Shown: one piece after another, positions 1-26,338 of the stretch | Layout of the letters: every line of letters starts with the position of its first letter | Position numbering within the stretch: the first letter of the stretch is position 1 | IMG/VR virus record: IMGVR_UViG_2802429231_000009 | Source of the DNA: a virus | Taxonomy: Duplodnaviria; Heunggongvirae; Uroviricota; Caudoviricetes | Direction: 5' to 3' (one strand) | DNA: 35,292 nucleotides | Translations under genes and position numbers: made by a program | Notes under the pieces: model-generated | Databases searched by the model: none | What the model saw: the letters and a program-made list of their open reading frames with translations, nothing else | Told to the model about the DNA's origin: nothing

Positions 1-1053
1 TTACGGGGTAATGCCAACCGCTGCCGCCACTTTGTCGCCACTTGGCAGCGTTGCCAGAGGATTGAAACGGAGCGCCGTTTCCAGATGATCCGGTGCCAGA
101 TGTGCGTAACGCATAGTCATTTTTATATCGTGGTGTCCGAGAATTTTTTGTAAGGCCAGAATGTTTCCACCCGACATCATGAAGTGCGCCGCAAACGTAT
201 GGCGCAGAACGTGTGTGAGTTGACCGCGAGGGAGCACGATAGACGTTTTTTCCATCACGGATAAAAATTGAAAATAGCAGTCTGTGAAGAAATTGAACCC
301 ATCAAGCGCCATGATCTCTTCGTAAAGCTCTTTACTGATAGGGATGCTTCTGTTTTTCTTCCCCTTCGTTCTGACAAAGGTAATTCGGTATTTGGTCACC
401 TGTGAGCGGGTAAGATTTACGGCTTCACGCCAGCGTGCGCCTGTGCTTAAGCATATCTTAACTACCAGTGCCAGAATTGGGTCCTGACGTTTGCAATCAG
501 CCAGCAATTCAACAATCTGCTCATGGGTAAGCCATGCCATCTCTTTTTCTGCGATGGTGAATTTTCGCATGTTCTCCAGTGGGTTCGGATACGACCATTC
601 GCCCAGACGGGATAGTTCGCTAAAAACACTACTTAGATAGCTTTGCTCCAGGTTAATGGTGACCGGGCTTGCTCCTTTCTTCCATTTCTCGCTGAAGTAG
701 ATCTCGCCTGTCAGGCGTTTATCTCGATAGTGGGCAAACATTTTAGAGGTGAGATCGGTTGCAAGAGGATTGCCTAGAGCGTCAACCATCAGCAGCAATT
801 TGTCATAGACATGCTGTCCAGCAGTCAGAGATTTACCATGTAGTTTGAACCATAGCTCAACCACGTCTTTCAGGGTTCGACGATCCACTGATTCGCCCAG
901 CCAGGGCTTTGATTCGGTTTCTTCCATCGTGTGACGCTCAAAAGCCAGAGCTTCGCCTTTGGTGGCGAATTGTTTACGCACACGACGCCCACTTCGTCCG
1001 GCGGGGTAACATTCGCAAAGCCATTTCCCTGTGGTGAGTTTTCGTACTGCCAT
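1..1053 (-). CDS. int: Phage tyrosine integrase (P2/186 Int family)
   Basis: ORF on minus strand ending with TAA at 1-3. Chosen start ATG at 1051-1053 preceded by GGAGGG, giving N-terminus MAVRKLTTGKW typical of this family. C-terminal LRHTFAAH...MTMRYAHL fits the tyrosine-recombinase R/HxxR/Y catalytic region. Confidence 0.88.
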   Translation of the reverse strand: MAVRKLTTGKWLCECYPAGRSGRRVRKQFATKGEALAFERHTMEETESKPWLGESVDRRTLKDVVELWFKLHGKSLTAGQHVYDKLLLMVDALGNPLATDLTSKMFAHYRDKRLTGEIYFSEKWKKGASPVTINLEQSYLSSVFSELSRLGEWSYPNPLENMRKFTIAEKEMAWLTHEQIVELLADCKRQDPILALVVKICLSTGARWREAVNLTRSQVTKYRITFVRTKGKKNRSIPISKELYEEIMALDGFNFFTDCYFQFLSVMEKTSIVLPRGQLTHVLRHTFAAHFMMSGGNILALQKILGHHDIKMTMRYAHLAPDHLETALRFNPLATLPSGDKVAAAVGITP

Positions 1054-1241
1054 AAAAAATGCCCTCCAGTAGAGAGCATTTTTACTGTATGTATAACCAG
1101 TGTCAATGTATGAAATCCTACGACCATACATCTCACTGAAGCCATAATGAAGTTGGCTATTCTTTTTGCTATGTGAGCATGTAACTTTTGCGGTTAACCT
1201 GCGGCTCATTTTTATTTTAGACGCAGATATAAAAACAAAAG

Positions 1242-1448: not shown

Positions 1449-2105
1449 CTATTTAACATACTTGACTGTTAAACTTATAATTTTACCAATTATTTCAATG
1501 TCTTCTATCTTGCATTCGAAGGCTCTGTTTCCACCCTCGACGAAGATTCTTCCACCGGGTAAACGAGTAATGTCACGGATCGTTATTTCGCCATCAATAC
1601 TTATTACCCATTTACCATCACGTATATCATCAAATTCTTTATCACAAATAAATTCAGAATTGTTATCTGTGATGACAAAAGGTTTTTTAAACGTAGAGGG
1701 TAGAAATCCCTTATCAAAAATATAAAAACCGTCTTTCTGCAATGCTCCATCAGACAATAAATATTTTTCTACTTCTATAGTATTTGTATTTGCTGATGCT
1801 TGCTTTGAACCATGCCCTGTTGTTAGCCAATTAAGCGAGGTGCCCGTTTCAAGGGCGCACTGGATTACCCAATCTGCTGGAAAAATATCACGCATATAGC
1901 GCGTTGCCATGGTGCTCTTAGAAACACCTAAATGATCACAGAGAGCCTGACGAGTACCGAACCCATATGCTTCAACTAAACGTTCTATGGCTTTCTTACC
2001 GCCGCTATTGAAATCCACAAGTCCTCCAAAGAAATCCAAAATTCGTTGACAGATTCCAAAAGCGATCTTAAAGTTGAACCAGAAGTGTTCTTTTGGAGCC
2101 TTCAC
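1449..2105 (-). CDS. cI: Phage immunity repressor, 186 CI-like (HTH)
   Basis: 218-aa ORF, GTG start, divergent from apl-like gene. HTH-like segment ERLVEAYGFGTRQALCDHLGVSKSTMATRYMR. Position between int and apl/cII as in 186. Confidence 0.65.
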   Translation of the reverse strand: MKAPKEHFWFNFKIAFGICQRILDFFGGLVDFNSGGKKAIERLVEAYGFGTRQALCDHLGVSKSTMATRYMRDIFPADWVIQCALETGTSLNWLTTGHGSKQASANTNTIEVEKYLLSDGALQKDGFYIFDKGFLPSTFKKPFVITDNNSEFICDKEFDDIRDGKWVISIDGEITIRDITRLPGGRIFVEGGNRAFECKIEDIEIIGKIISLTVKYVK

Positions 2106-2367: not shown

Positions 2368-2431
2368 TAGACGTCTATTTTCGCAATAAGACGCTGAGTT
2401 CGATTTTGCGATAAGTTCGGAGTTGAAAACC

Positions 2432-2941
2432 ATGTTTGATTACCAAGTTTCCAAACATCCACATTTTGATGAAGCCTGTCGTGCATTCGCACTGCGCCAC
2501 AATCTGGTGCAACTGGCAGAACGTGCGGGCATGAATGTGCAGATTCTGCGGAACAAGCTGAACCCAGCTCAACCTCATTTATTAACCGCACCAGAAATCT
2601 GGCTGCTTACCGATCTGACTGAAGATTCAACGTTGGTAGATGGTTTTCTGGCACAGATTCATTGTCTGCCATGTGTACCGATTAATGAGGTAGCAAAAGA
2701 GAAACTGCCACATTACGTCATGAGTGCAACCGCAGAGATCGGGCGTGTTGCTGCAGGTGCGGTATCTGGCGATGTAAAAACCAGTGCAGGTCGTCGTGAT
2801 GCTATCAGCAGCATTAACTCTGTAACACGACTGATGGCGCTGGCGGCTGTTTCATTGCAGGCCCGTTTACAGGCTAATCCTGCGATGGCGAGTGCAGTTG
2901 ATACCGTGACTGGCCTCGGTGCTTCATTCGGTTTGCTGTGA
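2432..2941 (+). CDS. cII: 186 CII-like lysogeny establishment activator
   Basis: Protein [19 protein letters not shown]... closely resembles 186 CII as I recall it. ATG at 2432 with GGAG 9 nt upstream preferred over the TTG at 2423 used by the ORF track. Confidence 0.72.
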
Positions 2942-4005: not shown

Positions 4006-4232
4006 TGGCTGATGCAATGGATCTCGTACAGCAGCGCGTTGAAGAAGAACGCCAGCGCCATATCCGTGCTGCCCGTGCCAAAACACCGGGCGTGTCTCGC
4101 GTGCTTTGCATTGAATGTGAAGCGCCAATTCCGCCAGCACGCCGCCGCGCCATTCCAGGAGTGCAGCTTTGCATTACCTGTCAGGAAATCGCAGAGCTGA
4201 AAGGCAAACATTACAACGGAGGTGCTGTATGA
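4005..4232 (+). CDS. TraR/DksA-family C4 zinc-finger protein
   Basis: 75 aa with CIEC-x17-CITC four-cysteine motif. Confidence 0.7.
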
Positions 4233-5385: not shown

Positions 5386-7796
5386 GCCATGCTGATATGA
5401 ACAACTGCAGCGGCTTTAACGAGGTCGCCGCAGCATTCTCATGGAACAGCCCGAAAAAGGCCATTAACCCTTATCTGGACCCGGCGGAAGTTGCGCCGGT
5501 TTCTGCGCTTTCAAACCTGATCACTCTGTACGCTGCCGATAACGAGCAGGAACAACTGCGCCGCGAGGCACTGAGTGATCAGGTCTGGGAGCGTTATTTC
5601 TTTAATGAATCCCGTGATCCTGTCCAACGCGAAATGGAGCAGGATAAGCTAATTAGCCGGGCAAAGCTGGCGCATGAGCAGCAGCGTTTTAATCCAGACA
5701 TGGCCATTCTGGCGGACGTCAACGCCCAGCCTTCCCATATCAGCAAGCCGCTGATGCAACGTATTAAATACTTCAGCAGCCTGGGCAGGCCAAAGGCTTA
5801 TTCCCGCTATTTGCGTGAGACGATTAAGCCATGCTTGGAACGACTGGAGCATGTACGCGACAGTCAGCTATCCACTTCTTTTCGCTTTATGGCAAGCCAT
5901 GAAGGGCTGGACGGCCTGCTGATCCTGCCTGAAATGAGTCAGGATCAGGTGAAACGCCTGTCCACCTTGGTAGCTGCGCATATGAGCATGTGCCTTGATA
6001 CAGCTTGTGGCGATTTGTATGCCACCGATGATGTTACGCCAGAAGAAATCCGCAAGACATGGGAAAAGGTGGCAGCGGAAACCCTGCGTCTGGATGTTAT
6101 CCCGCCTGCGTTTGAGCAACTCTGTCGGAAAAGAAACCGCCGTAAACCCGTGCCTTATGAACTCATTCCGGGTTCGCTGGCGCGTATGTTATGCGCCGAC
6201 TGGTGGTATCGGAAATTATGGAAGATGCGTTGCGAATGGCGGGAAGAGCAGTTGCGTGCTGTTTGCCTGGTCAGCAAAAAAGCATCTCCCTATGTCAGCT
6301 ATGAAGCCGTGATGCATAAACGTGAGCAGCGCCGTAAGTCGCTGGAGTTTTTCCGTTCTCATGAACTGGTGAACGAAGACGGCGACACGCTGGATATGGA
6401 AGACGTGGTAAACGCCAGCAGCAGCAACCCTGCGCATCGCCGCAATGAGATGATGGCCTGTGTTAAAGGTCTGGAGCTTATCGCGGAAATGCGTGGTGAC
6501 TGCGCCGTTTTCTACACCATCACCTGTCCGTCACGTTTCCATTCCACGCTAAATAACGGCAGGCCCAACCCGACCTGGACAAATGCGACGGTAAGACAAA
6601 GCAGTGATTATCTGGTCGGTATGTTTGCTGCATTTCGTAAGGCTATGCACAAAGCCGGGTTGCGCTGGTATGGCGTGCGGGTGGCTGAGCCGCATCATGA
6701 CGGCACAGTTCACTGGCACCTGTTGTGTTTCATGCGCAAAAAAGACCGCCGCGCCATTACTGCATTGTTGCGTAAGTTTGCCATCCGTGAAGACCGCGAG
6801 GAGCTGGGCAATAACACGGGGCCGCGCTTTAAGTCTGAGCTGATAAACCCGCGCAAAGGAACGCCGACAAGCTACATTGCGAAATATATCAGTAAGAATA
6901 TTGACGGGCGTGGTCTGGCTGGCGAGATCAGTAAGGAAACGGGTAAATCCCTGCGTGATAACGCTGAATACGTTAATGCCTGGGCGTCTCTGCATCGTGT
7001 TCAGCAATTCCGCTTCTTTGGCATTCCGGGGCGTCAGGCTTACCGTGAACTGCGATTGCTGGCTGGTCAGGCGGCAAGGCAACAGGGTGACAAAAAAGCA
7101 GGTGCGCCGGTACTGGATAACCCGCGCCTTGATGCCATCCTGGCTGCTGCTGATGCTGGTTGTTTTGCCACCTACATCATGAAGCAGGGCGGCGTACTGG
7201 TTCCCCGCAAATATCACCTCATCAGAACCGCTTATGAAATCAACGAAGAGCCAACCGCCTATGGCGATCACGGTATTCGTATTTATGGCATCTGGTCACC
7301 CATTGCAGAGGGCAAGATCTGCACTCATGCAGTGAAGTGGAAAATGGTTCGTAAGGCCGTTGACGTTCAGGAGGCGGCAGCCGACCAGGGCGCTTGCGCC
7401 CCTTGGACTCGTGGCAATAACTGTCCCCTTGCGGAAAATTTGAACCAACAGGAGAAAGATAAATCAGCTGATGGGGACACCAGAACGGACATTACCCGCA
7501 TGGATGACAAGGAGTTGCACGATTACCTGCACAGTATGAGCAAAAAAGAGCGCCGGGAACTGGCAGCAAGGTTACGCCTGGTGAAGCCGAAACGGCGTAG
7601 AGACTACAAACAGCGAATTACAGACCATCAACGACAGCAGCTCGTCTATGAACTGAAGTCCAGAGGATTTGATGGCAGCGAGAAAGAGGTCGATTTACTC
7701 CTTCGCGGTGGCAGTATTCCGTCAGGAGCAGGCCTGCGTATCTTCTATCGGAACCAGCGTTTGCAGGAAGATGATAAGTGGCGGAATCTGTATTAA
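5382..7796 (+). CDS. A: Rolling-circle replication initiator (P2 gpA / 186 RepA, HUH endonuclease)
   Basis: HUH motif in [10 protein letters not shown] and tyrosine motif [12 protein letters not shown]. About 804 aa. ATG at 5382 overlaps dam stop (ATGA), preferred over the upstream start at 5355. Confidence 0.9.
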
Positions 7797-8820: not shown

Positions 8821-9393
8821 GTGCAGGTAGTTCATATAGGGTTTCATAACTGCCTTAATCGTGGCAGTTATGAGACGATACGGCAAAGCGTACCCTTTTT
8901 AAGCCGTTCAGGCCCTAAACAATGGTTAACTCAAGGTTACTATTTTTGGACTGATGACCCATACTGGGCTCATCAGTGGAACGAAGGTCATGATACGGTC
9001 ATTAGTGAATTTTCTATCACCTTTGATTCAAAGGATGAGTTGCTTGATTTGGTTGGAAATGCTCGAGATATCAGGCAATTTGAAGCTATGCGTCAGAAAG
9101 TTGCCAGTACTTTGACTCGAATGAGCGCCTTGCATATCACAGTCAATCAGGTCATTAGCTTTTTTAGAGAGCTCGAGCAATCTGATGATTTTAAAGGCGT
9201 ATTTCCATATGCTGCTGTTAAGGCACAAGATAGTACGAAAGTGTCTAATCTTATAAGACTTAACTTTGTAGATGAGCGCCCAGAACAGATGGTTTCATTT
9301 ACCCGTCAGCAAATGTGTGTTTATGAACATGCTCGAGGTAAGATAGAGTTTAGAAGATTTATCTTTCCAGAGCATTTCTGTGAGAAGGATTAA
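8821..9393 (+). CDS. Cargo gene 1: uncharacterised 190-aa protein, candidate toxin/effector
   Basis: GTG start with AAGAGAGGA RBS, in an AT-rich island. No family recognised; contains an R-x4-H (RMSALH) motif of uncertain meaning. Confidence 0.55.
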   Translation: MQVVHIGFHNCLNRGSYETIRQSVPFLSRSGPKQWLTQGYYFWTDDPYWAHQWNEGHDTVISEFSITFDSKDELLDLVGNARDIRQFEAMRQKVASTLTRMSALHITVNQVISFFRELEQSDDFKGVFPYAAVKAQDSTKVSNLIRLNFVDERPEQMVSFTRQQMCVYEHARGKIEFRRFIFPEHFCEKD

Positions 9394-9638: not shown

Positions 9639-10028
9639 ATGAAACTAAGATTACGGGATAATACTGTTACTCGACTGTTGTTTGTCGATGCTGAAGGGCG
9701 CAAAATCGAATCTGGTTTTGCGCTTCGATTTAAGCCCATTTTTGATGAAAATCCGCGCGAATTTTCAGTATTGTTTGATTTTTATTACATTACTGAGAAT
9801 GATCGGGCATTACGAGTCGAGTTTCAAAGTGTTTTTGAAACAGATAAAGACATTGACGATTCTTTTAAAGAATCGAAGTTTCCAGTTGTTAATGCTCCTG
9901 CGATATCGTTCCCGTTTTTACGTTCGTTTGTTGCCAATTTTTTGATGACAAGTGGGTATACACCGATCCTGCTTCCTAGCTTTAACTTTACAACTTTTGA
10001 ACAGGATATCGGGAAGTTTCCTAACTGA
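9639..10028 (+). CDS. Cargo gene 3: SecB-like chaperone family protein (putative)
   Basis: C-terminal NAPAISFPFLRSFVANFLMTSGYTPILLPSFNF parallels E. coli SecB [32 protein letters not shown] (from memory). 129 aa, translationally coupled to gene 2. Confidence 0.55.
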   Translation: MKLRLRDNTVTRLLFVDAEGRKIESGFALRFKPIFDENPREFSVLFDFYYITENDRALRVEFQSVFETDKDIDDSFKESKFPVVNAPAISFPFLRSFVANFLMTSGYTPILLPSFNFTTFEQDIGKFPN

Positions 10029-18384: not shown

Positions 18385-18823
18385 ACTGCAGAAGGTGGAC
18401 GACTGGCTGAGTGCCTTGCTGGCGAATCTGGAACCAGCCACGAGAAGCCGCATGATGCGCCAGCTGGCGCAGGAACTGCGCCGGACACAGCAGCAGAATA
18501 TCAGGATGCAGCGCAATCCAGATGGCAGCAGTTATGAACCGCGCAGGGTAACAGCACGCAGCAAAAAAGGCCGCATCAAACGTCAGATGTTTGCAAAGTT
18601 GCGCACCACAAAATACCTGAAAACTGCCGCCAGCGCCGACTCTGCCAGCGTACAGTTTGAAGGCAAGGTGCAGCGTATTGCCCGTGTTCACCATTACGGC
18701 CTGCGTGATCGCGTCAGTCGCAAAGGACCGGAGGTCCGTTACGCAGAGCGCCGCCTGCTGGGTGTAAATGATGATGTTGAGGCAATGACCCGCGACATGA
18801 TTCTGCAATGGCTGGCGGGGTGA
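18377..18823 (+). CDS. S: Tail completion/virion morphogenesis protein S (P2 gpS-like)
   Basis: GTG start overlapping R stop; 148 aa. Confidence 0.7.
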   Translation: MAELQKVDDWLSALLANLEPATRSRMMRQLAQELRRTQQQNIRMQRNPDGSSYEPRRVTARSKKGRIKRQMFAKLRTTKYLKTAASADSASVQFEGKVQRIARVHHYGLRDRVSRKGPEVRYAERRLLGVNDDVEAMTRDMILQWLAG

Positions 18824-18827
18824 TCTT

Positions 18828-18845
18828 TGTATCAGCACTGATACA
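18828..18845. promoter_or_regulatory. Ogr-type late promoter activator site (TGT-N12-ACA)
   Basis: TGTATCAGCACTGATACA palindrome upstream of the V operon. Confidence 0.55.
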
Positions 18846-18891
18846 AGTTGCAGCACTGCCGCCTTTCTTCCCCTGATGGCAACCTTTCCCT

Positions 18892-20721: not shown

Positions 20722-21319
20722 TCTGCTGCCACCGGGTTCAACTTCACTGGAGCGCCGACTGGCGCAAACCTGTAGCGGGATTTCTGATTTGCAGGTGCCG
20801 CTGCGTGACTTGTGGAATCCGGCTACCTGTCCGGTCAGCTTCCTGCCTTATCTCGCCTGGGCGTTCTCTGTGGATCGCTGGGACGAGGGCTGGACAGAAA
20901 GCGTCAAACGCCAGGTAGTGAAGGATGCTTTTTATATTCATCAGCATAAAGGAACCACCAGTGCCGTGCGGCGGGTGGTGGAACCGTTCGGATTCCTGAT
21001 CCGCATTATTGAGTGGTGGCAGACTGGAGAAACACCGGGCACGTTTCGCCTGGACATCGGCGTGCAGGACCAGGGCATCACTGAAGATACCTATCTGGAA
21101 CTTGAGCGGCTGATAAGCGATGCCAAACCATGTAGCCGTCACATGATCGGCATGTCCATCAATCTGCAAACCAGTGGCCCGCACTGGGTAGGGGCCGCCA
21201 GCTATCTTGGTGAAGAAATCACGATCTATCCGTATATCAACGAAACAATTATTTCTGGCGGCACCGCGCATGAAGGCGGGGCGGTCCATGTTATTGACAC
21301 AATGAGAGTGAATCCATGA
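20714..21319 (+). CDS. I: Tail protein I (P2 gpI-like)
   Basis: 201 aa; overlaps J stop. Confidence 0.75.
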   Translation: MNSLLPPGSTSLERRLAQTCSGISDLQVPLRDLWNPATCPVSFLPYLAWAFSVDRWDEGWTESVKRQVVKDAFYIHQHKGTTSAVRRVVEPFGFLIRIIEWWQTGETPGTFRLDIGVQDQGITEDTYLELERLISDAKPCSRHMIGMSINLQTSGPHWVGAASYLGEEITIYPYINETIISGGTAHEGGAVHVIDTMRVNP

Positions 21320-22845
21320 GCACAAAATTTTATACCCTGCTGACGGATATTGGCGCGGCGAAACTTGCCAGCGCCGCCGCGCTCGGTGTGCCGTTAAAAA
21401 TTACCCATATGGCGGTCGGCGATGGCGGCGGAACATTACCAACGCCGGACGCAAAGCAGACTGCACTGGTAAATGAGAAACGCCGGGCTGCGCTGAATAT
21501 GCTCTATATCGACCCGCAAAACAGCAGCCAGATTATTGCTGAACAGGTGATCCCTGAAAACGAGGGCGGTTGGTGGATACGTGAAGTGGGCCTGTTTGAT
21601 GAATCCGGGGCATTGATTGCCGTGGGCAACTGCCCGGAAAGCTATAAGCCGCAACTGGCTGAAGGCAGCGGGCGCACCCAGACCGTGCGCATGGTGTTGA
21701 TTACCAGCAGCACGGACAATATCACCCTGAAAATCGACCCTGCCGTCGTGCTGGCAACCCGCAAGTATGTGGATGATAAGGTACTGGAGCTGAAGGTGTA
21801 CGTGGATGATCAGATGGCAAAACATCTTGCAGCACCGGACCCGCATTCACAGTATGCACCCAAAGAAAGTCCTACGTTTACCGGGACACCCAAAGCGCCA
21901 ACGCCAGCGGCGGGGAATAATACCACGCAGGTTGCGACCACCGCGTTTGTTCAGGCGGCACTGACGGCTCTTATTAATGGTGCGCCAGCCACGCTGGACA
22001 CGCTGAAAGAAATTGCCGCAGCCATAAACAATGACCCGAAATTCAGTACCACCATTAACAATGCGCTGGCACTGAAAGCGCCGCTGTCGAGTCCGGCACT
22101 CACCGGAACGCCAACCGCACCGACTGCGGCACAGTCGGTCAACAATACACAGATTGCCACCACGGCATTTGTGAAATCGGCGATTGCGGCAATGGTGGGT
22201 TCTGCACCTGCGGCACTGGATACACTGAACGAACTGGCGGCGGCGCTGGGGAATGACCCGAACTTTGCCACGACAATGCTTAATGCACTGGCAGGTAAAC
22301 AACCGCTGGACAATACGCTGACTAATTTGAGTGGAAAGGATGTTGCTGGTCTTCTCGCATACCTTGGTTTGGGAGAAGGTTCTGCATTACCTGTAGGAGT
22401 ACCAGTTCCGTGGCCTTCAGCCACTCTGCCGACAGGCTGGTTGAAATGCAATGGCGCTGCCTTTGATAAGGTTAAATATCCCCGTCTTGCTACAGCATAT
22501 CCATCAGGGAAACTACCTGATCTCCGTGGTGAGTTTATTCGTGGCTGGGATGACGGACGAGGCGTTGATGCTGGACGTGCTTTATTGAGCATTCAGACTG
22601 GGATGCTGGAAAAACATCGCCATATTGTTGTTGCCAACGATGGGTATGATTCAAAAGAGGAATGGGAACTGGCGACAATCTTCAGAAGAGCATACACGCA
22701 AGGCCGGGGGCTTGATGCTGCTGATGTCGGAGGGACTCTGATTCCATCACCAACGCTACATACACGAGGGAGTATTGGTAACACAGGTGGAAGCGAAACC
22801 CGTCCGCGAAATATTGCATTTAACTTTATCGTGAGGGCTGCATAA
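21316..22845 (+). CDS. H: Tail fibre protein H
   Basis: 509 aa with a conserved-looking N-terminal domain, tandem Ala/Thr-rich repeats (TTAFV...DTL...AAA..NDP.F.TT) and a distinct C-terminal domain. Confidence 0.8.
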   Translation: MSTKFYTLLTDIGAAKLASAAALGVPLKITHMAVGDGGGTLPTPDAKQTALVNEKRRAALNMLYIDPQNSSQIIAEQVIPENEGGWWIREVGLFDESGALIAVGNCPESYKPQLAEGSGRTQTVRMVLITSSTDNITLKIDPAVVLATRKYVDDKVLELKVYVDDQMAKHLAAPDPHSQYAPKESPTFTGTPKAPTPAAGNNTTQVATTAFVQAALTALINGAPATLDTLKEIAAAINNDPKFSTTINNALALKAPLSSPALTGTPTAPTAAQSVNNTQIATTAFVKSAIAAMVGSAPAALDTLNELAAALGNDPNFATTMLNALAGKQPLDNTLTNLSGKDVAGLLAYLGLGEGSALPVGVPVPWPSATLPTGWLKCNGAAFDKVKYPRLATAYPSGKLPDLRGEFIRGWDDGRGVDAGRALLSIQTGMLEKHRHIVVANDGYDSKEEWELATIFRRAYTQGRGLDAADVGGTLIPSPTLHTRGSIGNTGGSETRPRNIAFNFIVRAA

Positions 22846-23447
22846 TGGATAACGCTGTATTAAATAGCGAGCTTATTGCCACGAAGGCGGGGAATATTAC
22901 TGTCTATAACTATGATGGAGAAACACGGGAATATATTTCCACTTCAAATGAATATCTTGCCGTTGGTGTCGGTATCCCGGCATATTCCTGTTTAGATGCT
23001 CCTGGCACATATAAGGCTGGTTATGCAATCTGCCGTTCAGTAGATTTAAACTCATGGGAATATATGCCAGACCATCGCGGTGAAATTATCTATAGCACCG
23101 AAACAGGAGAAGCAAAAGAAATCACGGTGCCGGGTAATTATCCTGAAAATACAACCACTATCGCCCCGTTAACGCCATACGATAAATGGGATGGTGAGAA
23201 ATGGGTGACGGATACCGAGGCACAGCATAGCGCCGCAGTAGACGCAGCAGAAGCACAGCGTCAGTCACTGATTGATGCTGCAATGGCTTCCATTAGTCTG
23301 ATTCAGTTGAAATTGCAGGCCGGGCGGAAGCTGATGCAGGCAGAGACCACCCGACTTAACACTGTGCTGGATTACATCGATGCGGTGACGACAACGGATA
23401 CCAGCACTGCGCCGGATGTCATCTGGCCTGAACTGTCGGAGGCGTAG
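22845..23447 (+). CDS. G: Tail fibre assembly chaperone G (Tfa)
   Basis: 200 aa; start in TAATG overlap with H; C-terminus ...TSTAPDVIWPELSEA typical of Tfa proteins. Confidence 0.8.
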   Translation: MDNAVLNSELIATKAGNITVYNYDGETREYISTSNEYLAVGVGIPAYSCLDAPGTYKAGYAICRSVDLNSWEYMPDHRGEIIYSTETGEAKEITVPGNYPENTTTIAPLTPYDKWDGEKWVTDTEAQHSAAVDAAEAQRQSLIDAAMASISLIQLKLQAGRKLMQAETTRLNTVLDYIDAVTTTDTSTAPDVIWPELSEA

Positions 23448-23640
23448 GTCATTCAATATCTGGAGCACGGGGTGTATCGACCAGTTCTAGTGCATCCAGA
23501 TAACTCACCCACGAATTATATTGTTCCAGTTCGCCACCTTTCAGGCGATAAATAGCTGCTTTATCAGACCATTGCTTACTGTTTATAAACTCGTTAGCCT
23601 AGTCTATTCGCAGTTGTTTCTCTGCTTCGGTAGCAACCAC
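23448..23640 (-). pseudogene. Inverted 3' fragment of an alternative tail fibre assembly gene
   Basis: Minus-strand translation gives ...VVATEAEKQLRID*ANEFINSKQWSDKAAIYRLKGGELEQYNSWVSYLDALELVDTPRAPDIE* with an internal stop and no start. Confidence 0.5.
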
Positions 23641-23690
23641 AATCTCATATAAATTAAACTAATAAGTTTTTATTAAAAGTAAGATAGATG

Positions 23691-23712
23691 CCACCATTTT
23701 ATATAAATGGTG
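23691..23712. terminator. Hairpin downstream of the 290-aa cargo gene
   Basis: CCACCATTT-TATATA-AATGGTGG perfect inverted repeat just 3' of the minus-strand gene. Confidence 0.3.
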
Positions 23713-23720
23713 GTTCGCAG

Positions 23721-24593
23721 TTAACTAGCATGTAATAAGTTGAACAGGTTTTTAGTTACTTCGTTTTTAGTACTAAAAAACATATCTTTAAGGTCCGGTA
23801 ATGCAAAGGCAGCATTTTGGTCATTCGGTACAACAATAGGAGGCTCATATCCGTTGTCATACATTTTCTTTAAAGCGGCTACTATTTTTGTCTGATTTTG
23901 ACTGAATTCTTTCATGTCAATAAAAATTTCTCCAGATAGGGTCCCATCATCTTCACGTAGTATCGCTGGTTTGACACGACATATCTGATCCATTTCTCCA
24001 GTAGAAAAACCGGCAATCGCTGCATTAAATAACAAAGATGAAGTAGCCCATTTTTCATATAGTTTTTTGATAGCCATGCTTCTGATTTTTTTATCGTTGA
24101 TATATCCAATGCCACTGGCCAAAACTTCGGTTAATGGATTTTCCCCGCGAGTTACTCCAGACCAATAGTTGTGCATCCAGGGCGCATTTTGCTCAAGCGG
24201 AGAGCCGAGATAATCAGTGATCCACTCTGAGTCCACCTCTGTAAAGTTCAAACCATGAAAATCAATTTCTGCAATAGTGTTTTTATAGTTTTGATTTAAA
24301 CCCAAACGGTCAATTGCTATTTCAGCCATTTCTTTTGTTTTGAATAGATATATTCCGGTTAGGCGGGAAACTTTATCTCTGAAATTGTCTGAGCGTACCT
24401 TTTCAAGAGCTAACTCATTTTGTAATTTTTCATTGTGATTATCTGATAAGTATTTTCTTACTAGATTGTAGAACCAAATAGATACTCCAAACTCACTTTT
24501 ATAACAGATTGATTCAATTCTTCCTATTGCAACCTCCCAGGCAACAATTGGATTGTTTAAATTTAAGTAAGCATATAGTTTTCTCTGTTCCAT
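23721..24593 (-). CDS. Uncharacterised 290-aa cargo protein at the P2 Z/fun-equivalent position
   Basis: AT-rich ORF with AAGGAAAA RBS; lies between tail fibre genes and sheath gene; no family recognised. Confidence 0.6.
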   Translation of the reverse strand: MEQRKLYAYLNLNNPIVAWEVAIGRIESICYKSEFGVSIWFYNLVRKYLSDNHNEKLQNELALEKVRSDNFRDKVSRLTGIYLFKTKEMAEIAIDRLGLNQNYKNTIAEIDFHGLNFTEVDSEWITDYLGSPLEQNAPWMHNYWSGVTRGENPLTEVLASGIGYINDKKIRSMAIKKLYEKWATSSLLFNAAIAGFSTGEMDQICRVKPAILREDDGTLSGEIFIDMKEFSQNQTKIVAALKKMYDNGYEPPIVVPNDQNAAFALPDLKDMFFSTKNEVTKNLFNLLHAS

Positions 24594-24753
24594 TTTTATT
24601 TTCCTTATAGATGCTATGAAGGTTATTATTACATAAATGTTCGATAAATGTTTTTAAGTTTTAACTTCGTTTCGGTGCCAATAAATATACATTACAAGTG
24701 AAATTTATCAAGGTAACAAAAGGAGAGCTAATGCTAATAGGCTATGTACTCCA

Positions 24754-25023
24754 ATGGGCCGTTTCTTTTTTCATGTCATGGGTGCCCTGGCTGAAATGGA
24801 ACGCGAACTGATAGTTGAACGTACCAGGGCGGGGCTTGCTGCAGCTCGCGCCAAAGGCAGAGTAGGTGGACGCCGTCCTAAGTTGACCATCGAACAGTGG
24901 GCACAGATTGGACGCTTACTCGAGGCCGGAGAATCAAGACAGCGTATTGCACTGATTTTTGATGTGGGTGTTTCCACAATTTATAGAAAATTTCCGGCAA
25001 ATAAGAGTAATGAATCTCCCTGA
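24754..25023 (+). pseudogene. Serine DNA invertase (Hin/Gin/Pin/Cin family), C-terminal fragment only
   Basis: FFHVMGALAEMERELIVERTRAGLAAARAKGRVGGRRPKLT...VSTIYRKFP matches the C-terminal HTH region of invertases; catalytic N-terminal domain absent. Confidence 0.6.
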
Positions 25024-25071
25024 ATCAGCATTATTTTGATTATCCCTGCAAGTAGACAAATACCGTCATTT

Positions 25072-25089
25072 TGTGTGAATAACGGTACA
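25072..25089. promoter_or_regulatory. Ogr-type late promoter activator site (TGT-N12-ACA)
   Basis: TGTGTGAATAACGGTACA upstream of the sheath gene. Confidence 0.5.
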
Positions 25090-25165
25090 ACTGCGCTTAG
25101 CTGTTTGTCAGGCACAATCACTTCAACATAGGGCGAAGCCTAATCCAATCAGGAGGTTCGCCACT

Positions 25166-26338
25166 ATGGCTCAGGATTACCACCACGGGGTGCGCGTTGT
25201 TGAAGTCAACGAAGGCACCCGATCCATTACCACGGTGAGCACCGCCATCGTGGGCATGGTCTGCACGGGCGATGATGCCGATGCAAAAATGTTTCCTCTT
25301 AATAAACCCGTGCTGATCACTGATGTACTGACCGCCAGCGGTAAAGCGGGTGAGTCCGGCACGCTGGCCCGTTCGCTGGATGCCATCGCTGACCAGGCAA
25401 AACCCGTGACCGTTGTTGTGCGTGTGCCGCAGGGTGAAACGGAAGAAGAAACCACGACTAATATTATCGGCGCAGTGACCGCTGAAGGTAAAAAAACAGG
25501 CATGAAAGCCCTGTTATCTGCCCAGACACAGCTCGGCGTTAAACCGCGCATTCTCGGCGTGCCAGGTCACGATAACAAAGCCGTTGCGACTGAGTTGCTG
25601 AGCGTGGCGCAAAGCCTGCGTGGGTTTGCTTACCTGTCAGCGTATGGCTGCAAGACGGTACAGGAGGCGATCACTTACCGTGAAAACTTCAGCCAGCGCG
25701 AAGGGATGCTGATCTGGCCTGACTTTACTGGCTGGGACACGGTGCTGAATGACGAAGCAACGGCATATGCCACCGCCCGTGCGCTCGGTCTGCGCGCCAA
25801 AATTGATGAGCAGACCGGGTGGCACAAGAGCCTGTCCAACGTAGGCGTGAACGGTGTCACCGGAATTTCTGCTGATGTGTTCTGGGATCTGCAGGACCCG
25901 GCAACCGATGCAGGTCTGCTTAACCAGAACGACGTCACCACCCTTATCCGCAAGGACGGTTTCCGCTTCTGGGGTTCCCGCTGTCTGAGTGATGATCCGC
26001 TCTTTGCCTTCGAAAACTACACCCGCACGGCGCAGGTGCTGACGGACACGATGGCAGAAGCGCACATGTGGGCGGTGGACAAACCGCTTAACCCGTCGCT
26101 GGCCCGCGACATTATCGAAGGTATCCGCGCCAAAATGCGCAGTCTGGTAAGCCAGGGCTATCTCATTGGTGGTGATTGCTGGCTGGATGAGTCGGTGAAC
26201 GACAAAGACACGCTGAAAGCCGGAAAACTCACCATCGACTATGACTACACGCCAGTGCCGCCACTTGAAAATCTGATGCTGCGCCAGCGCATCACCGATC
26301 AGTACCTGGTGAATTTCGCCAGCCAGGTCAGCGCGTAA
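25166..26338 (+). CDS. FI: Tail sheath protein (P2 FI-like)
   Basis: 390 aa; AGGAGG RBS; synteny. Confidence 0.85.

Follow-up and report, generated by a model that had tools for sequence, protein, structure and literature searches.

A probable relic of a serine-invertase tail-fibre switch, with an AT-rich accessory gene, in the G-FI hotspot of a P2/186-like Escherichia coli prophage

Between the tail fibre assembly gene G and the tail sheath gene FI, this P2/186-like E. coli prophage very probably holds what is left of a serine-invertase tail-fibre switch, of the Mu G/P1 C/e14 P type, that no longer functions. We analysed the prophage together with some host flank as a single window, the whole stretch of 35,292 nucleotides. 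An earlier note on the region had proposed an ancestral invertible tail-fibre segment now fixed in one orientation, and collinearity with the intact switch of E. coli UMNK88 and an orphan crossover site inside the fibre gene H bear this out. Because the window holds no partner site, no alternative cassette and no catalytic recombinase, the fibre is fixed as H plus G; inversion would no longer be possible and a single fibre type, H with its current variable part (Sv) plus G, would be made.

The switch relic and an unrelated AT-rich gene, here called the cargo gene, lie together in the interval from G to FI, which is the classical Z/fun hotspot. The literature describes this hotspot as mixed in purpose: besides fibre swaps it holds defence-like cargo and DNA invertases (10.1101/2024.10.15.618418). 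The window matches most of a prophage in strain GN02461, annotated by PGAP from the replication endonuclease to ogr, at 96-97% identity; the two prophages differ at the old/tin hotspot and by an extra insert in GN02461. At old/tin the window carries the PD-T4-9 (CmdTAC) defence system (8821-9393 and 9639-10028, both + strand), with matches to component A at E=2.8e-96 and to the SecB-like component C at E=1.1e-60, and the small gap between these two components would hold the antitoxin. The same position in GN02461 is occupied by other cargo, a hypothetical protein and a DUF262 protein. GN02461 also has a gene for a TIR-domain protein (L004 14946-16033) inserted in the interval that separates baseplate gene V from the virion morphogenesis gene; this gene is absent from the window (18714-18877), suggesting a further variable site among these phages. 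Coordinates of the features discussed below are given in Table 1.

Table 1. Features of the window, with positions counted from its first nucleotide
Feature	Position	Strand	Remarks
Integrase	4-1209	-	Pfam
186-type CI repressor	1449-2105	-	Pfam
CII/CP76	2423-2941		Pfam
Tail fibre gene H, 509 aa, intact	21316..22845	+	Pfam Phage_tail_fib, Collar
Orphan left crossover site (cixL-like), 26 bp	22352..22377	.	Inside H; TTCTCGCATACC TT GGTTTGGGAGAA
Tail fibre assembly gene G, 200 aa, intact	22845..23447	+	Pfam Caudo_TAP, E=9e-29
G' pseudogene fragment, codons 73-148 only (76 codons)	23419..23646	-	Pfam, PHROG, tblastn
Left deletion joint	23647..23655	.	G' codon 73 fused to 3' flank of cargo module
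Terminator-like hairpin	23691..23713	-	Just past cargo stop codon; conserved in L015, L020 and C4
Cargo ORF, 290 aa, AT-rich	23721..24593	-	N-terminal domain DUF2441-like, ADP-ribosyltransferase-superfamily fold
Candidate sigma-70 promoter for cargo	24684..24711	-	TTGATA-16-TATATT; consensus scan only, 10/12 positions
Invertase 5' stub, ATG + codons 2-6 (MLIGYV), RBS kept	24731..24748	+	Contiguous with L020 cargo-module homology
Invertase 3' remnant, residues 98-189	24748..25023	+	End of catalytic domain/helix E + HTH; catalytic Ser9 region absent
Tail sheath gene FI	25166..26338	+	PGAP annotation of homologous loci; conserved right border of G-FI (Z/fun) hotspot

Remnants of the switch between G and FI

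The fibre gene H consists of a constant N-terminal part followed by the currently expressed variable C-terminal part, Sv, and G is the chaperone for the expressed fibre tip. H is equal in length to and collinear with H of UMNK88 (91.8% identity), and at the boundary between its constant and variable parts we found the one residual crossover site of the window, which encodes ..LAYLGLGEG.. within the fibre. The full site has a single match in the window where none is expected by chance, and in sequence it equals the left arm (L002 2508-2534) of the inverted pair in UMNK88. A search of the 35-kb window for the full or right site with up to 3 mismatches returned no partner. Looser searches of the whole window, with the AAACCNNGGTTT core and with half-sites at up to 2 mismatches, recovered nothing but the site in H and chance-level matches, and an inverted-repeat search gave no pair resembling the crossover pair of UMNK88 or of the relative L020. 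Likewise, tblastn of an intact invertase, G' and S'v against the whole 35-kb window recovered only the G' fragment and the invertase remnant, with no S'v and no other serine invertase, so that the finding which would have refuted the earlier note did not turn up. In L021, the variable fibre cassette beside cixR (~6957-7024) is of the same type as the window's tip at 22348-22415 (GEGSALPVGVPVPWP...), and the fixed specificity of the window is thus among the alternatives still switched in relatives.

Immediately after G, the opposite strand carries the C-terminal part of an alternative assembly gene, G', as the earlier note had recognized. Its identity is established far beyond chance by matches to Pfam Caudo_TAP (positions 66-125 of 131, E=7e-10) and to the PHROG tail fibre assembly family (E=7.5e-16), and by tblastn with residues 73-148 of the intact UMNK88 G' (70% identity, E=1.6e-29). 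The translation, EIVVATEAEKQLRID*ANEF...APDIE*PTPPTVQAR*, is interrupted by two in-frame stops (TAG at 23599-23601 and TGA at 23449-23451) rather than by the one internal stop first reported, and the C4/L026 version of the fragment has none. The 3' ends of G and of the fragment overlap by 29 nt, tail to tail, as they do for the intact G' gene. UMNK88 G' homology detected by tblastn stops at 23646 and homology to the cargo module of L020 begins at 23656, a position that corresponds to 10 nt outside cixR in L020. Missing at this left joint are G' codons 1-72, S'v and cixR, and strain C4 has the identical joint. We considered an invertase-mediated origin of the window's left deletion and rejected it, as the joint lies outside cixR and no half-site is left.

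The second remnant had been described as the HTH portion of a Hin/Gin/Pin-type invertase, and this assignment held. The ORF at 24754-25023 (89 aa) matches Pfam Resolvase at positions 109-144 of 145 (E=2.9e-10), HTH_7 (E=1.3e-15) and a PHROG DNA invertase family (E=3.9e-37), and over residues 98-189 the remnant shares 98.9% identity with the invertase of UMNK88. The accompanying statement that the catalytic domain is lacking is right for the Ser9 region, but the end of the domain is still there, as are codons 1-6 of the gene, which had been missed. These six codons are joined out of frame to residue 98, with ~270 nt (codons 7-97) gone, the catalytic serine included. The retained invertase start (24698-24811, + strand) now gives an out-of-frame peptide of 26 aa, MLIGYVLQWAVSFFMSWVPWLKWNAN, which ends at 24811; the HTH ORF begins at an internal ATG at 24754, with no RBS apparent by eye. 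The genes for Gin, Cin and Hin contain a Fis-dependent recombinational enhancer in their 5' part, and codons 7-97, the interval where such an enhancer would lie, are deleted in the window. At the near-identical locus of GN02461, PGAP marks the G' and invertase pieces both as incomplete pseudogenes.

The intact relatives Mu G/Gin, P1 C/Cin and e14 P/Pin share a fibre gene split at a crossover site into constant and variable parts, two tip and chaperone cassettes placed tail to tail, an invertase just outside the segment, and 26-bp sites with an AAACC-NN-GGTTT centre. In contrast, the window is down to a single site, a single complete cassette and roughly half of the invertase, and is inoperable. 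A complete serine invertase, two inverted 26-bp sites and two tip/chaperone cassettes are all three wanting, while the crossover site inside the fibre gene is present and synteny with UMNK88 and L020 indicates descent from an intact switch. Unlike the switches of Mu and P1, the relic sits in a P2/186-type tail module.

Intact relatives and the course of decay

Alignment to an intact segment was provided by UMNK88, which has the same backbone and the same gene order in its G-FI locus: H, G, G' (147 aa, - strand), S'v (- strand), an invertase of 188 aa and the sheath gene. The best inverted repeat there is a 27-nt pair, TTCTCGCATACCTTGGTTTGGGAGAAG / CTTCTCCCAAACCAACGTTTAAGAAAA, with its arms inside H and at the start of S'v; an AAACC-NN-GGTTT core of this kind is typical of Hin/Gin/Cin/Pin sites. 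The UMNK88 stretch from G' through S'v to the invertase was present to at least 80% in 262 of 5426 complete E. coli genomes, indicating that the intact switch is common. Identity between the window and UMNK88 is 91.8% over 21001-23632 and 97.7% over 24748-25400. Between these aligned flanks, UMNK88 has 982 bp that hold the G' N-terminus, S'v, cixR and invertase codons 1-97; in their place the window has a 1115-bp cargo stretch that brings its own 18-nt invertase stub. Both ends of the query are also matched at ~90% identity by Escherichia phage 500465-1 (NC_049342) and Klebsiella phage KP12, further examples of the intact invertible locus, in which a DNA invertase is annotated at this place.

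Loci carrying close homologues of the cargo protein were collected by exact-protein look-ups (L015, L017-19, L020 and L021 among them), a contig scan having given distant relatives only. Several of these loci combine the cargo gene with a full-length invertase. L020, with a cargo protein 87% identical to that of the window, is complete, containing the sheath gene, a 183-aa invertase, cargo, a crossover site, S'v, G', G and H, with its crossover pair at 2521-2554 and, inside H, at 4182-4215. In the Citrobacter sedlakii loci L017-19, whose cargo protein is 60% identical, a 185-aa invertase is followed by cargo, CTCTCCAAAACCTTCAATTGGGAGAAG and S'v-type coding sequence, and L021 and L015 show the same arrangement, with cargo between cixR and the full-length invertase. 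All invertases in L020, L015, L017-19 and L021 are 183-192 aa long and keep the MLIGYVRVSTNDQ N-terminus, and the switches of L020, L015, L017 and L021 are apparently functional alongside the cargo. Window positions 23656-24749 form one unbroken block with 84% identity to L020, where the block begins 10 nt outside cixR and ends at codon 6 of the invertase. Three short-read contigs with an intact invertase and cargo, L015 (end at 5960), L018 and L019 (ends at 5964), stop at the cixR crossover core or ~24 nt beyond it. Ends of this kind would arise if the sequenced population contained both orientations, and are suggestive of active inversion.

The ancestral layout, as relatives show it, would have been H[constant part-cixL-Sv] G / G' S'v-cixR / cargo module / invertase / sheath. 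In the most economical order of events, one inferred from only a few genomes, the locus would first have lost G' codons 1-72, S'v and cixR by a deletion (joint at 23647-23655) common to the window and C4. Loss of ~270 nt inside the invertase gene, codons 7-97 with the catalytic serine, would have followed, the gap in C4 being smaller and nested, and the window/GN02461 lineage would then have gained two nonsense mutations in its G' stub. This decay is seen at an intermediate stage in strain C4: in three E. coli genomes, C4 among them, the window's cargo and left joint are accompanied by an invertase gene that keeps codons 1-17 and resumes near codon 70. H of C4 (L001 1184-2689) is annotated as two incomplete pieces, and the fibre module of C4 is in this respect more broadly degraded than that of the window.

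Other cargo-bearing loci have lost the switch in different ways. In L016 (cargo 77% identical), only invertase residues 133-185 remain, and a half crossover site, TTCTCTAAACC-TT, is fused at the core dinucleotide, exactly where the deletion that took away S'v ends, to a frameshifted C-terminal fragment of G' (~2140-2300), as if an invertase-catalysed deletion had used a quasi-site inside G'. In L027, cargo directly abuts G with only a degenerate invertase 5' stub upstream, and the contig contains no detectable match to the 3' part of the invertase. L028 keeps cixR, S'v and G' and has its invertase split in two, where an assembly error is possible. The decay of L016 is clearly independent and that of L027 probably so; overall, the cargo-bearing loci would represent at least two clearly independent switch losses, including that of the window/C4 clade, and probably four, versus four intact lineages.

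The 3' part of the window's invertase gene is only 70-74% identical to the invertase alleles linked to cargo, as opposed to the 97.7% shared with UMNK88, indicating that recombination has shuffled the locus. What we describe as an internal deletion could instead be, wholly or in part, a recombination joint. In its strongest form, this alternative takes the invertase gap as the right joint of an illegitimate or short-homology recombination that imported the cargo into a UMNK88-like resident, with the switch dying at that moment. We consider this unlikely, though it is the best placed of the alternatives. It accounts for the mosaic remnant, in which the stub is contiguous with an L020-like module (84%) and the 3' part is UMNK88-like (97.7%, against ~73% to L020). 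However, the window and C4 share the left joint and differ in their right joints, so that one import is insufficient and at least one later deletion is needed, and the mosaic is accounted for just as well by homologous exchange within a still intact invertase gene and a subsequent deletion.

The earlier note had read the locus differently, with the cargo inserted in the place of the invertase N-terminus; on this reading, the insertion itself would have destroyed the invertase by replacing its N-terminal catalytic domain. In the window alone, this is what the arrangement resembles, with the cargo immediately upstream of an N-terminally truncated invertase ORF. The comparison with relatives makes it very improbable. 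Cargo and full-length invertase coexist in L020, L015, L017-19 and L021, and C4 combines the same cargo with a different and smaller gap. The RBS, the ATG and codons 1-6 of the invertase remain downstream of the cargo module in the window itself, and the ~270-nt gap is separate from it. On its other side the cargo abuts a different deletion, that of G' codons 1-72, S'v and cixR, rather than the loss of the invertase N-terminus.

The open HTH-coding 3' end is kept in the decayed variants of the window, C4 and L016, as would be the case if the 89-aa HTH ORF had been domesticated as a small DNA-binding protein, for example for the orphan site in H. This too is most unlikely: the internal ATG is not preceded by any RBS apparent by eye, translation from the native start is out of frame, the breakpoints differ (residue 98 in the window, about 73 in C4 and 133 in L016), the L027 contig lacks a detectable 3' match altogether, and PGAP calls the piece a pseudogene. 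That the switch still works, by an invertase supplied in trans from another prophage (for example e14 Pin) acting on a cryptic second site, is scarcely credible even though cixL in H is intact and Gin/Cin/Pin/Hin-family invertases cross-complement, since there is no second full site in 35 kb, half-site matches are at chance level, and with no alternative S'v cassette in the window any inversion would truncate H. We therefore retain decay of an intact switch, by deletion and then by nonsense mutation, as the preferred reading of the locus.

The cargo gene and its module

The cargo is a compositionally distinct accessory gene between G and FI, with a GC content of 0.29-0.39 in its region versus 0.50-0.58 in the flanks. 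The module appears to be self-contained, an AT-rich unit of a single gene that brings its own terminator and promoter region. In the intact relatives, the alignments place it beyond the invertible segment, with cixR on one side and the invertase start on the other. The cargo would be expressed independently of the switch. Its position is that of the P2 Z/fun moron hotspot, although the gene is neither Z/fun nor listed in PADLOC; a comparison of the protein with PADLOC-DB v2 gave no match at E<=1.

To characterize the protein we combined homology and structure searches. There are 103 homologues, in Proteobacteria and beyond, and many carry precomputed matches to PF10386 (DUF2441), some of them flagged as weak. 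Direct hmmscan of the window protein gave no Pfam match even at E<=10, and two PHROG matches were both to families of unknown function. A tblastn search of 50,697 phage records returned no match to the cargo, a BFVD fold search was uninformative, and a PDB sequence-profile search with the cargo profile gave only a marginal match to 2AUA (E=0.42). An AlphaFold model built from 54 sequences reached a pLDDT of 93.4, and on this model we are confident that the predicted fold is shared with the solved DUF2441 structure and with ADP-ribosyltransferase (ART) enzymes. The resemblance is between the N-terminal domain of the cargo and DUF2441 (PF10386; structure 2AUA, which is BC2332 of Bacillus cereus), of the ADP-ribosyltransferase clan; Pfam places DUF2441 in the ART clan (PMC7955679). 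Unlike DUF2441, the cargo carries an extra C-terminal domain of ~125 residues. Invariant residues of the cargo protein are R25, S38, E60, E64, R67, R77, D121, S122 and E156. We know of no activity for any DUF2441 member; the modelled fold suggests an NAD-using or ADP-ribosyl-transferring enzyme.

Only 7 of 5426 complete E. coli genomes contain at least 80% of a G-to-FI query that includes the cargo. More distantly related homologues stand as single genes in three further mobile settings. In Yersinia, the homologue adjoins tail-fibre genes at a host-flanked prophage edge; in Pantoea, a kinase and an AAA ATPase accompany it in an island that contains P2-like remnants; and in Vibrio, it lies in a gene-cassette-like array next to ParE/Phd. 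This lone-gene occurrence in other mobile-element hotspots suggests a role that benefits the lysogen, as anti-phage defence or as a toxin, and the cargo is possibly a stand-alone accessory gene of this kind, a putative defence gene or toxin. More tentatively still, it may be a candidate single-gene anti-phage or toxin module of ART fold that moves with the 5' end of the invertase gene just outside cixR. On this tentative proposal, which we regard as having a fairly small chance of being right, carriage may accompany repeated collapse of the switch, with the collapse in L016 looking as if the invertase had catalysed it through the G' quasi-site.

Meaning for the prophage and its relatives

The relic is a case of ordinary prophage decay, of a known kind of system in a known hotspot, and was already flagged as pseudogenic in public annotation. 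Literature searches on decayed P2 invertases and on parallels in SopE phages turned up nothing of direct relevance. The added value of the analysis is modest and consists of the comparative decay series and of a clearly bounded, uncharacterised cargo module of ART fold. The series delimits this module as a terminator, a 290-aa gene and a promoter region, and the module recurs in P2-like hotspots, in the Vibrio gene-cassette-like array and in a defence-like island. Being compact, delimited and recurrent, it is an easy candidate for cloning and anti-phage testing. Annotation pipelines and host-range predictors should not list the locus among phase-variable fibres. The decay leaves the prophage with a single, fixed tail-fibre specificity and offers a clean example of stepwise erosion, from an intact switch through the loss of one cassette and one site to nested invertase deletions and finally nonsense mutations.
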